Part shown: positions 15,660 through 24,911 of the stretch, one piece after another | How positions within the stretch are numbered: position 1 is the first letter of the stretch | Layout of the letters: each line of letters starts with the position of its first letter | Origin: Eledone cirrhosa | Lineage: Eukaryota | Reading direction: 5' to 3' | NCBI GenBank assembly: GCA_964016885.1 | Contig: OZ024762.1 | Span: 9,114,001-9,178,000, forward strand | DNA length: 64,000 nt | Made by a program: the position numbers and the translations under genes | The notes under the pieces: generated by a model | Databases searched by the model: none | Told to the model about the DNA's origin: nothing | Seen by the model: only the letters and a program-made list of their open reading frames with translations

Positions 15660-18200
15660 AAATCTAGTCTAATATGTCATCAAAAAAGCTATGACAATAG
15701 TTATACATAGAATAATAAAGAATAGATTTGAGCCTCGGAAGTGAATAATTATACATAATATAGTAAATAATACATTTGAGCCAACGATAAAAGTAGTTAA
15801 ATAGATTTGAGCCAGAAAGGACAATAGTTATGCGAAATATAGTAGATAATAGATAGATTTGGGCAAGGATGACAATAGTTATACATAATATAGTAAATAA
15901 AGATGGTTAAGTGTAGTAGAGTAGTCAACAGACTTGAGCCAATGATGACAATAATTATACGAAATATTGTTCATAATGGATTCGACCTAAGGATGAAAAT
16001 AGTTACACATAGTCTAGTAAATGGATTTCAGTCGACGATATATATGATATAGTAGTCAACTAAATAATAGATTTGAACCAAGGATTACAATAGTTATAGG
16101 TAGGCTAGTAAATAATAGATTTGAACCAAGGATTACAATAGTTATAGGTAGGCTAGTAAATAATAGATTTGAACCAAGGATGACAATAGTTATAGGTAGT
16201 CAACTAAATAATAGATTTGAACCAAGGATTACAATAGTTATAGGTAGGCTAGTAAATAATAGATTTGAACCAAGGATGACAATAGTTATAGGTAGGCTAG
16301 TAAATAATAAATTTGAACCAAGGATTTCAATAGTTATAGGTAGGCTAGTAAATAATAGATTTGAACCAAGGATCACAATAGTTATAGGTAGGCTAGTAAA
16401 TAATAGATTTGAACCAAGGATCCCAATAGTTATAGGTAGGCTAGTAAATAATAGATTTGAACCAAGGATTTCAATAGTTATAGGTAGGCTAGTAAATAAT
16501 AGATTTGAACCAAGGATTTCAATAGTTATAGGTAGGCTAGTAAATAATAGATTTGAACCAAGGATCACAATAGTTATAGGTAGGCTAGTAAATAATAGAT
16601 TTGAACCAAGGATCACAATAGTTATAGGTAGGCTAGTAAATAATAGATTTGAACCAAGGATTTCAATAGTTATAGGTAGGCTAGTAAATAATAGATTTGA
16701 ACCAAGGATTTCAATAGTTATAGGTAGGCTAGTAAATAATAGATTTGAACCAAGGATCACAATAGTTATAGGTAGGCTAGTAAATAATAGATTTGAACCA
16801 AGGATCACAATAGTTATAGGTAGGCTAGTAAATAATAGATTTGAACCAAGGATCACAATAGTTATAGGTAGGCTAGTAAATAATAGATTTGAACCAAGAT
16901 TAGTAAATAATAGATTTGAATAGGTAGGCTAGTAAATAATAGATTTGAACCACGGATGACAATAGTTATAAGCAGGGCCGCTGCCAGAGTATCTGGCACC
17001 CTAGGCGAGGTTAGATTCTGTCTCACCCATCCTCGGAAAATATCAATTTCAAAATTTATAAACAATAAATTTAAAAAAAAAATTGTTTCTACATTTATTT
17101 GTCCCTGTATGAAATAAACCTTGATACAAAACGACCCTCAATTAAACTAAATTTATTTATCTATTTATTTTTCAAAATTGTTATTGATTTGAAAAAATCC
17201 GACCCTGAAATCAGCCCCCTAGGTGGCTGCCTAGTTTGCCTGTATGGTAGCGCCGGCCCTGGTTATAAGTAGGCTAGAAAATAATAGACTTGAACCCATG
17301 ATAGAGTTAAACCAATGATTACAATAGTTATAGCTAGGCTAGTAAATGATAGATTTGAACCGAGGATCACAATAGTTATACGTAAGTTAGAAAATAATAG
17401 ATTTGAACCAATGATCACTATAATTGCAGGTAGGCTAGTAAATAATAGATTTGAACCTAGGATCACAAGAGTTATACGTAAGTTAGAAAATAATAGATTT
17501 GAACCAATGATCACTATAGTTATAGGTAGGCTAGTAAATAATAGATTTGAACCAATGATCACAATAATTGCAGGTAGGCTAGTAAATAATAGATTTGAAC
17601 CAATGATCACAATAATTGCAGGTAGGCTAGTAAATAATAGATTTGAACCAATGATCACTATAATTGCAGGTAGGCTAGTAAATAATAGATTTGAACCAAT
17701 GATCACTATAGTTATAGGTAGGCTAGTAAATAATAGATTTGAACCAATGATCACTATAATTGCAGGTAGGCTAGTAAATAATAGATTTGAACCAATGATC
17801 ACTATAATTGCAGGTAGGCTAGTAAATAATAGATCTGAACCTAGGATCACAAGAGTTATAGGTAAGTTAGAAAATAATAGATTTGAACCAATGATCACTA
17901 TAGTTATAGGTAGGCTAGTAAATAATAGATTTGAACCAATGATCACTATAGTTATAGGTAGGCTAGTAAATAATAGATTTGAACCAATGATCACTATAAT
18001 TGCAGGTAGGCTAGTAAATAATAGATTTGAACCAATGACCACTATAATTGCAGGTAGGCTAGTAAATAATAGATTTGAACCAATGATCACTATAATTGCA
18101 GGTAGGCGAGTAAATAATAGATTTGAACCAATGATCACTATAATTGCAGGTAGGCTAGTAAATAATAGATTTGAACCAAGGATTACAATAGTTATAGGTA
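15660..18200. repeat. 48-bp minisatellite, degenerate at the left end and interrupted by a hAT MITE
   Basis: Unit CTAGTAAATAATAGATTTGAACCAAGGATCACAATAGTTATAGGTAGG. Confidence 0.95.
16973..17261. mobile_element. hAT-type MITE inserted in the minisatellite
   Basis: TIRs CAGGGCCG / CGGCCCTG; perfect 8-bp TSD GTTATAAG (16965-16972, 17262-17269). Confidence 0.9.
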
Positions 18201-20397: not shown

Positions 20398-20437
<40 letters not shown>

Positions 20438-20553
20438 CATATACATACACATGCATCCATGTATATACACATATACATATATATATATACATATGTACAT
20501 TTGTATATACATATTTACACACCTTTGGATGGCCGTTGACTATTATGAGTTCT

Positions 20554-20639
<86 letters not shown>

Positions 20640-20740
20640 CATATATATATACATATATATATATATGTATGTATATACATATATATATATATGTATATAT
20701 ATATATATGTATGTATATATATATATATGTATGTATATAC

Positions 20741-20774
<34 letters not shown>

Positions 20775-20988
20775 GTATGTATATATGTATATATATATAT
20801 ATATATATGTATGTATATATATATATATATATATGTATGTATATACATATATATATATATATATGTATGTATATACATATATATATGTATGTATATACAT
20901 ATATATATATGTAATACATTATGAAGAGAGAAGAAACATTTAGATATAATTAGTAATAAAATGTATCATACCTAAACTGCTCCTAAAT

Positions 20989-21076
20989 TCCTCGACTACG
21001 TAGTTTCGTGGCATAAACAAAAACAATATATCAAAGATATAGAGTCCCTGCGAGGTCTGCCAACTTATCAAGAGGA
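20989..21076 (-). ncRNA. Hammerhead ribozyme, U3-A8 variant (inverted copy)
   Basis: Reverse complement of 21780-21867. Confidence 0.75.
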
Positions 21077-21779
21077 TACCTCATTTTACTAGTCTCAAGA
21101 ACGCGTCTACACGACGTGAGAAAGAATCCCAAAAGGCGGAGGGGGAGATAGTCACGCGATATAACGGTCGAGAAACAGAGCTAAGCCTCCTATAACCACG
21201 AAGAAAATACCACGGAGGCGGAGGGGGTATTCATATCGAGGCCGTAGAAGAGGTAGTGAAGAAGGCGAGAAGTATGAGTAATGGAAGCTTTCCAGTTGTC
21301 CCCACATTATCCTAATTATATCTAAATGTTTCTTCTCTCTTCATAATGTATTTTTAACTCTGATACTGGTTCAGTCTGGTTCAAACTGAATTGGTCTGTC
21401 CCAGTCATTCATTGAGCAACATCGGTGAAGTTGGCACCCTTAACTCACAGTTGGGTGCGGATGCATTCATGTATATATGTGTGTGTCCGCATGTATCTGT
21501 GTGTTTCTAAATATATTAATAACTCCCTCTGGTCGAGCAATCTTTGAGGTGTGGGGAAAACTGGAAAGCTTCCATTACTCATACTTCTCGCCTTCTTCAC
21601 TACCTCTTCTACGGCCTCGATATGAATACCCCCTCCGCCTCCGTGGTATTTTCTTCGTGGTTATAGGAGGCTTAGCTCTGTTTCTCGACCGTTATATCGC
21701 GTGACTATCTCCCCCTCCGCCTTTTGGGATTCTTTCTCACGTCGTGTAGACGCGTTCTTGAGACTAGTAAAATGAGGTA

Positions 21780-21867
21780 TCCTCTTGATAAGTTGGCAGA
21801 CCTCGCAGGGACTCTATATCTTTGATATATTGTTTTTGTTTATGCCACGAAACTACGTAGTCGAGGA
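21780..21867 (+). ncRNA. Type I hammerhead ribozyme, U3-A8 variant with a large loop II
   Basis: TCCTC-TTGATAA-GTTGGCA..TGCCAC-GAAA-CTACGTAG-TC-GAGGA; predicted cleavage after 21862. Confidence 0.8.
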
Positions 21868-22370
21868 ATTTAGGAGCAGTTTAGGTATGATACATTTTAT
21901 TACTAATTATATCTAAATGTTTCTTCTCTCTTCATAATGTATTTTTAACTCTGATACTGGTTCAGTCTGGTTCAAACTGAATTGGTCTGTCCCAGTCATT
22001 CATTGAGCAACATCGGTGAAGTTGGCACCCTTAACTCACAGTTGGGTGCGGATGCATTCATGTATATATGTGTGTGTCCGCATGTATCTGTGTGTTTCTA
22101 AATATATTAATAACTCCCTCTGGTCGAGCAATCTTTGAGGTGTGGGGACAACTGGAAAGCTTCCATTACTCATACTTCTCGCCTTCTTCACTACCTCTTC
22201 TACGGCCTCGATATGAATACCCCCTCCGCCTCCGTGGTATTTTCTTCGTGGTTATAGGAGGCTTAGCTCTGTTTCTCGACCGTTATATCGCGTGACTATC
22301 TCCCCCTCCGCCTTTTGGGATTCTTTCTCACGTCGTGTAGACGCGTTCTTGAGACTAGTAAAATGAGGTA

Positions 22371-22458
22371 TCCTCTTGATAAGTTGGCAGACCTCGCAGG
22401 GACTCTATATCTTTGATATATTGTTTTTGTTTATGCCACGAAACTACGTAGTCGAGGA
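22371..22458 (+). ncRNA. Type I hammerhead ribozyme, U3-A8 variant (second tandem copy)
   Basis: Same sequence as 21780-21867; predicted cleavage after 22453. Confidence 0.8.
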
Positions 22459-22847
22459 ATTTAGGAGCAGTTTAGGTATGATACATTTTATTACTAATTA
22501 TATCTAAATGTTTCTTCTCTCTTCATAATGTATTTTTAACTCTGATACTGGTTCAGTCTGGTTCAAACTGAATTGGTCTGTCCCAGTCATTCATTGAGCA
22601 ACATCGGTGAAGTTGGCACCCTTAACTCACAGTTGGGTGCGGATGCATTCATGTATATATGTGTGTGTCCGCATGTATCTGTGTGTTTCTAAATATATAT
22701 ATATATGTATGTAAATACATATATATATATATATACATATTATATATATACATATTATGAGCCTTCCCAAGTATAACAATATATATACATACATATTTAT
22801 ATATATACATACATACATATATATAATTAAATATATATATATATATG

Positions 22848-24437: not shown

Positions 24438-24598
24438 TATATATATATATTTATATATATATATTTATATATATATATTTATATATATATATATATATAT
24501 AAAGGTATATATATATTTATATATATATTTATATATATATAAAGGTATATATATATATATATATGTGAGAAAAACCACAGACCCTCCATCTCAACTCA

Positions 24599-24636
24599 CC
24601 TTTTGAAAAGCAGAAGAACTGCGAAACCGGTAAAGG
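24599..24636 (+). ncRNA. Minimal type I hammerhead ribozyme, U3-A8 variant
   Basis: CCTT-TTGAAAA-GCAG-AAGAA-CTGC-GAAA-CCGG-TA-AAGG; stems I and II perfect; palindromic ACCGGT. Confidence 0.75.
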
Positions 24637-24768
24637 AACCAAATAAATATATATATTTTAAAAAAAAATAAGACTTCAGTTGCATTTTCGATTTCATCCC
24701 TTTTTCTTTATACTTCCACTCGTGTAGGACACCTCGGTTATTTTTCATTTTGTAAAAAAAACCCTCAC

Positions 24769-24911
<143 letters not shown>

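Follow-up and report, generated by a model that had tools for sequence, protein, structure and literature searches.

The question raised by this locus is what kind of element consists of a 591-nt unit repeated in tandem next to an inverted copy of itself, with a hammerhead motif in each unit, and how such an arrangement could have arisen. The locus lies in a 64,000-nt stretch of the Eledone cirrhosa genome (hereafter, the window). The reading that we prefer, with a probability of roughly 0.8, is an insertion of a high-copy non-coding hammerhead family, likely a non-autonomous derivative of Penelope-like elements, or PLEs (a non-LTR retrozyme), mobilised in trans and primed at two sites, S and L.

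The layout is summarised in Table 1, where unit position 1 is 21863, the first base after the predicted cleavage site. The first-pass annotation described a 591-bp tandem with an inverted head of about 394 bp, a lone difference between the units and identity of the head to unit 2, and all of this holds, except that the right end is situated at 22698, not at 22696; it named neither the class (PLE-derived retrozyme) nor the two fixed ends. The single mismatch between the units of the direct array is at 21558/22149, and the inverted head is 100% complementary to unit 2 with one mismatch to unit 1. The GC content of the unit is 42%, below 50% as in non-LTR retrozymes. The coding capacity is nil, the longest stop-to-stop frame in the element being 86 aa, and an ORF with RT and GIY-YIG endonuclease, the mark of an autonomous EN+ PLE, is absent from it. 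The (TA)n flanks mask any target-site duplication. Loose TA ends at 21351 and 21516, that is, at both the S and the L ends, are present in run X1 (assembled contigs of unspecified kind).

Table 1. Features of the 591-nt element and its flanks, in window coordinates.
Feature	Position	Strand	Remark
Target tract, left (TA)n microsatellite	20401..20910	.	(AT)n beside 138/139 sampled 3' ends of the family
Inverted arm, 394 nt	20913..21306	-	from 5' truncation at unit position 279 to the 3' S end at 80-81
Hammerhead copy 3, within the inverted head	20989..21076	-	C17 at 20994
Central junction, 5 nt	21307..21311	.	joins the two 5'-truncated arms
Direct arm, 1,387 nt = 2.35 units of 591 nt	21312..22698	+	from 5' truncation at unit position 41 to the 3' L end at 245
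165-nt tail, S site to L site	21943..22107; also 21352-21516 and 22534-22698	+	
Predicted conserved hairpin closing the 165-nt tail	about 22033-22096		
Motif directly after the L site	21523..21537; also 22114-22128	+	common to subfamily B and family C; weakly like Neptune-type PLE start
Predicted pseudoknot 5' strand, UGAGGU	21773..21778	+	pairs with ACCUCG at 21800-21805; covariation only across the clan
Type I hammerhead 1	21780..21867	+	C17 at 21862; stem I 21780-84/21863-67; U3-A8 core 21785-91; branched stem II 21792-21848; GAAA 21849-52; palindromic stem III 21852-61
Predicted hairpin hiding the stem I 3' strand	21863..21933	+	stops 9 nt short of the S site (21942)
Type I hammerhead 2	22371..22458	+	C17 at 22453
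Target tract, right (TA)n microsatellite	22699..22846	.	

The hammerhead string ascribed earlier to each unit is found in both expected positions of the direct arm, and a third copy, in the inverted head, had been missed. The core strings are UUGAUAA, GAAA and UC, with a Watson-Crick 3-8 pair. The U3-A8 core, taken initially for an atypical one, is conserved in 246 of 248 sampled copies, but it is not new, as it has been published for Schistosoma PLE hammerheads. Stems I, II and III with the G10.1-C11.1 pair have 97–99% of cells paired per helix, and 98.4% of cells are paired across 86 distinct family sequences; two-sided changes within the family are seen at 2 of 33 pairs and at none of the six pseudoknot pairs. 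What had been called an expanded loop II is instead a branched stem: within the 44 nt, a short stem leads through an asymmetric internal loop to a 13-bp interrupted hairpin. The loop's 5' strand is complementary to the bases immediately upstream of stem I, and covariation across the clan described below suggests that these two strands pair as a pseudoknot, which would stabilise the ribozyme.

Computed folds do not yield the hammerhead. Folded as a circle, the unit is more stable than its shuffles (-173 vs -139 +/- 6 kcal/mol, 40 shuffles), but in this fold the hammerhead is not formed, stem I being locked in a hairpin at positions 1-71. The minimum-energy fold of the isolated hammerhead region also differs from the hammerhead (z 0.42; -19.1 vs -22.7 kcal/mol without the pseudoknot energy). 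The alternative hairpin would switch the ribozyme off in the monomer, and only its inner part is present in the A/B consensus fold. A local Rfam scan of 21312-22090 yielded ten matches at E<=10, with hammerhead among none, and for the whole window the best 150 of 438 Rfam matches were all microsatellite-driven miRNA.

The same shape recurs in other families, forming what we call a clan. Seventeen hammerhead families are present in at least two loci; four of them have a pseudoknot run of 5–8 bp, formed by differing sequences, and a representative with an 8-nt palindromic stem III and a 50–57-nt stem II, while in the other 13 the run is at most 4 bp. Over 20 groups, the mean run is 6.05, compared to 4.03 in shuffles (the maximum of 1,000 being 4.7) and 4.40 with swapped partners; the respective p-values are optimistic, since the groups share ancestry and the windows to be searched were set once the first cases were known. 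In one of the 20 groups the run is only 3 bp. Stem III covaries too, with six different palindromic 8-mers across the clan, which fits dimer pairing: the ribozymes could pair with each other through stem III. The canonical-core pattern of the same shape has 14,403 matches genome-wide (control, 180). Family C is not accompanied by an ORF of its own, and comparison of the clan hammerheads with PLE 3' UTRs revealed no tie. The clan provides natural C3-G8/U3-A8 and pseudoknot variants overlooked by common descriptors and Rfam, and it may already be contained in the supplementary alignments of PMC4209133 and PMC8557442 and in Repbase. One clan copy, of family F, with a canonical core, a long stem II and an 8-nt palindrome, is situated in the window at about 3700-3830 and ends in (TA)n.

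To count copies, we used a family pattern in which position 3 may be C or U and position 8 may be G or A. It yielded 6,833 exact matches in the 3.0-Gb microsatellite-rich genome and none when reversed; hence the copies are not due to chance. A DNA search with the unit produced 1,237 candidates; of the 40 that were scored, those matching the full unit are 98–100% identical. An older subfamily, B, has a 580-nt unit, about 73% identical, and 1,823 candidates. The core, the stems and the pseudoknot strands are kept above the background between the 591-nt family and subfamily B, with 49 of 55 positions identical vs 388 of 536 elsewhere (p=0.006).

The 3' ends of the copies lie at two fixed points, unit positions 80 (S) and about 245 (L), that is, 165 nt apart, whereas the 5' ends are scattered. 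The whole genome contains at least 2,485 S junctions with TA and at least 1,644 L junctions, the S:L ratio meaning little as the two patterns are unequal in strictness; the controls yield none. We examined 93 loci, selected for near-identity or an intact hammerhead, so that the sample leans young; four of them have no arm at >=86%. The 91 insertions comprise 46 simple two-armed, 42 single-armed and three complex ones. Among the two-armed insertions, 44 are L+S, none is LL or SS, and two have another end (43 of 45 L+S if one duplicate is removed), and the single-armed ones are divided almost equally (21 L, 20 S, one other). All 24 head-to-head neighbours on C1 54-105 Mb, one of them already in the sample, are L+S. 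An apparent LL pair in that region was resolved as two separate insertions. The subfamily B loci, for which a looser alignment was used, include nine L+S, one LL and five with an unresolved end.

The cleavage site is read through in 126 of 137 arms, at least twice in 69 of them. In 16 of 45 two-armed insertions each of the arms is longer than a unit, and arms reach 5.8 units. Two further candidate regularities were rejected. The number of 5' ends in positions 1-20 after the cleavage site is 12 vs 5.6, but other bins are equally high. A hairpin before each end, considered as a general RT signal, holds for A and B and partly for C and F, and fails in the ORF-bearing families.

These data bear on the possibility that the element is a satellite-like repeat, spread and homogenised at the DNA level, with a vestigial hammerhead and with homogeneity partly due to assembly polishing. 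The units are indeed in tandem, and polishing could smooth near-identical ones. Still, the arrays are short and dispersed, stop at fixed points on the 3' side and at variable ones on the 5' side, and are flanked by (TA)n; families encoding RT and GIY-YIG have the same layout; the loose TA ends in run X1 are at both sites; and 98 heterogeneous sites are still present in the assembly. We consider this explanation very improbable and already largely refuted.

The assignment to non-LTR retrozymes relies on comparison with known systems. Animal retrozymes were proposed to be non-autonomous PLE derivatives (bioRxiv 10.64898/2026.07.22.740005). The metazoan non-LTR retrozymes co-occur with PLEs, and their mobilisation by PLEs via circular RNA was suggested; as here, they are non-coding tandems with a type I hammerhead per unit and GC below 50% (PMC7229834; bioRxiv 10.64898/2026.07.22.740005). 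The 591-nt unit is above the 150–450 bp range of PMC7229834 but inside the range of 51–972 bp of bioRxiv 10.64898/2026.07.22.740005. The element described here has an inverted arm, while the word "inverted" does not occur in the main text of PMC7229834. Retrozymes have canonical motifs, whereas the 591-nt family combines a branched stem II, predicted to be pseudoknotted, with the U3-A8 core.

The resemblance to EN+ PLEs (PMC8557442, PMC3846280, PMC11167929) covers partial tandems, an inverted 5'-truncated copy, a tail at one end and (TA)n targets. In these PLEs, as here, the hammerhead is near the 3' end; the tail is the interval between two RT start sites. The 591-nt element differs in having no ORF and in the tail of 165 nt rather than 30–40, with the strict S+L pairing and single-haplotype arms being quantified here. 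PLE minimal hammerheads, including that of Schistosoma Cercyon (PMC4209133), also are type I with a 5-bp stem I, G10.1-C11.1, a palindromic stem III and U3-A8 covariation. U3-A8 is found in about 1,300 Schistosoma PLE hammerheads, for which a dimer model and circular templates were proposed in the same paper. The hammerhead considered here differs from them by its 57-nt branched stem II, the 8-nt palindrome and the predicted Watson-Crick pseudoknot to the 5' flank. A base-paired contact of the stem I and stem II regions is predicted in about 40% of hammerheads and was shown to raise activity (PMC3088659); the contact predicted here instead links the sequence 5' of a type I motif to the stem II internal loop, in an animal mobile element.

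The novelty claimed by the first-pass annotation was thus overstated, as the U3-A8 core, the tandem and inverted layout and the two RT start sites had already been published for PLEs. The paired use of S and L, the 165-nt tail and this hammerhead clan were not found in a literature search that covered openly accessible main texts. What seems new is the branched stem with its pseudoknot covarying across the clan, the 165-nt end spacing, the one-S-one-L pairing and the single-haplotype arms.

Several PLE families are present in the same genome. The ORF-bearing ones have two ends too, 88, 68 and about 45–60 nt apart, and there is an ORF-bearing family with its own U3-A8 hammerhead. A blastn comparison of the unit with 50 GIY-YIG, 15 Neptune-type and 30 family-P loci produced no meaningful nucleotide similarity apart from inserted copies, and this counts against a PLE partnership. 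A modest likeness connects the motif following the L end with the beginning of the Neptune-type unit (p=0.009 for A and 0.0025 for B, not significant for C and F), and this is the best lead to the partner enzyme. The Neptune-type PLE (L218 and related loci) has 65,238 candidate matches and only a degenerate hammerhead-like sequence near the 3' end; no Pfam match was found for it. PLE family P is very young (931 candidates, copies about 100% identical), with an asparagine-rich insert and two alternative long ends, and it also has no Pfam match. A fragment at window positions 38645-39064 is 78% identical at the protein level to the C-terminal part of family P. Another one, at 24563-24781, is the 3' fragment of an RT/GIY-YIG PLE family (the 938-aa frame in L101) and carries a short U3-A8 hammerhead at 24599-24636.

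Two chimeric insertions join the 591-nt family to other PLE families. In L273:2396-5758 (G000:C2, about 140.926-140.929 Mb), a 591-family arm and family P face each other head to head, and in L058:1866-3030 such an arm meets one of the L101 PLE family in the same orientation, at a short palindromic junction. One chimera partner family has an open frame of 1,121 aa. Both chimeras are L+L, counter to the S+L rule.

We now consider how the two arms could be formed. The PLE enzyme nicks and extends both strands of AT-rich DNA and initiates internally at two RNA sites, the interval between which is the genomic tail (PMC11167929). By analogy with this biochemistry, a PLE reverse transcriptase-endonuclease copying the 591-nt element in trans would nick both strands of a (TA)n tract, and each nicked 3' end would prime cDNA at an internal RNA site; the S/L data add that one strand would take S and the other L. 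The two cDNAs would meet head to head, producing the inverted head and the tandem arm. As to the template, read-through multimers would be cleaved by the hammerhead and ligated into a monomeric circle, and each enzyme would run round it more than once (rolling reverse transcription). We give this circular template slightly better than even odds. In L1 twin priming, two target strands prime on one RNA, creating a 5' inversion. In the 591-nt family, unlike in L1, neither site varies, and the two arms cover overlapping parts of the template and are often longer than a unit.

Sequence variants help to trace the template. In 67 young insertions, copies in the same arm diverge by 0.23% and those in opposite arms by 0.26%, compared to 0.89% for copies from different insertions. 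Segregating sites shared by the arms are present in 28 of 33 young two-armed insertions, and none of 182 comparisons at such sites yields a between-arm mismatch (52.1 expected). Among the variants private to one insertion, 19, in 12 insertions, are carried by every unit of an arm, whereas 66 occur in one copy only and four in some copies; eight span both arms. The arm-wide private variants and the low divergence within arms imply that the arrays pass through a single-unit bottleneck and then are re-amplified. A circle is the simplest route to the re-amplification, although template jumping or DNA-level duplication could serve as well. Taken together, the pairing of S with L and the single haplotype of each insertion favour a model in which both arms are primed on the same monomeric RNA, probably a circle. 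Cyclic contigs of about one unit (depth 8; one each in runs X4 and X6) were discarded as evidence for circles, as they carry the family-majority alleles and tandem DNA collapses identically.

The same haplotypes make it improbable that the two arms come from two RNA molecules in one dimeric particle, held together as a protein dimer or as an RNA dimer via the stem III palindrome. The six palindromic 8-mers of the clan, the predicted dimer of the PLE protein (PMC11167929) and the two chimeric head-to-head insertions are consistent with this model, but the absence of between-arm mismatches and the eight private variants common to both arms contradict it unless both RNAs were derived from the same source locus, and the chimeras violate the S+L rule.

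A stronger competitor, though still unlikely, retains the same element and start sites and replaces the circle by an uncleaved linear multimer, transcribed from a young tandem locus; the hammerhead would be dispensable, and the arrays would regrow by template jumping or DNA-level duplication. Reading through the cleavage site needs no ligation, and a young homogeneous source also yields a single haplotype per insertion. With an anole PLE in vitro, uncleaved RNA was used, the hammerhead was dispensable and the start site was equal on both strands (PMC11167929), which counts against the cleavage, ligation and rolling steps of the mechanism proposed above; eight of nine Xenopus retrozyme dimers failed to cleave (bioRxiv 10.64898/2026.07.22.740005). 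On the other hand, the arm-fixed private variants and the length of the longest arms demand a bottleneck at a single unit and re-amplification, the heterogeneous sites recur with the same alleles in only one within-insertion pattern, and the conservation of the hammerhead exceeds the background.

Returning to paired priming on a circle, we would tentatively, at somewhat less than even odds, extend it to a general statement. Inverted PLE insertions may be single events in which both nicked strands prime at two fixed sites on one circular RNA, each enzyme rolling; the family would record this in thousands of copies with starts 165 nt apart, and its hammerheads would be part of a clan not described before, comprising over 21,000 pseudoknotted ones with branched stem II. 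The formation of tandem and inverted copies by PLEs and the role of the hammerhead are stated as open questions in PMC8557442 and PMC11167929. The family is a long-tailed variant with a predicted pseudoknotted hammerhead, and it offers genomic evidence of unusual clarity on the formation of inverted PLE insertions. As it is young and polymorphic with widely spaced starts, the site and the template of each arm can be read, making it a substrate for tests of paired priming and circular templates.

The window contains a second element of this kind. The "300-bp element", to which the first-pass annotation likened the 591-bp one in layout, is in fact a tandem with a 310-bp period, situated at about 50409-51684, and it too has a hammerhead and an inverted head. 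Its hammerhead has a canonical core, cleavage is predicted after 50891, 51201 and 51511, and its two ends are about 35 nt apart. The absence of sequence similarity between the two units, also noted earlier, stands (score 26 vs shuffle means of 31 and 27). A common mobilisation route, suggested at the time, is supported by the same layout, the (TA)n target and the two 3' ends. The tail spacing, from about 35 to 165 nt among families of one genome, suggests start sites defined by the RNA and not by a fixed geometry of the DNA cuts. An array related to the 310-bp element, with at least nine hammerheads, is present in L225.

Other repeats were observed in the window. Type I hammerheads of other families are situated at 35775-35830, 40130-40195 and 40338-40403, two of them forming an inverted pair. 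The sequence from 22848 onward may resemble a Helitron-type 5' end. Minisatellite arrays with a 48-bp period occupy 1535-2290 and 15691-18200.
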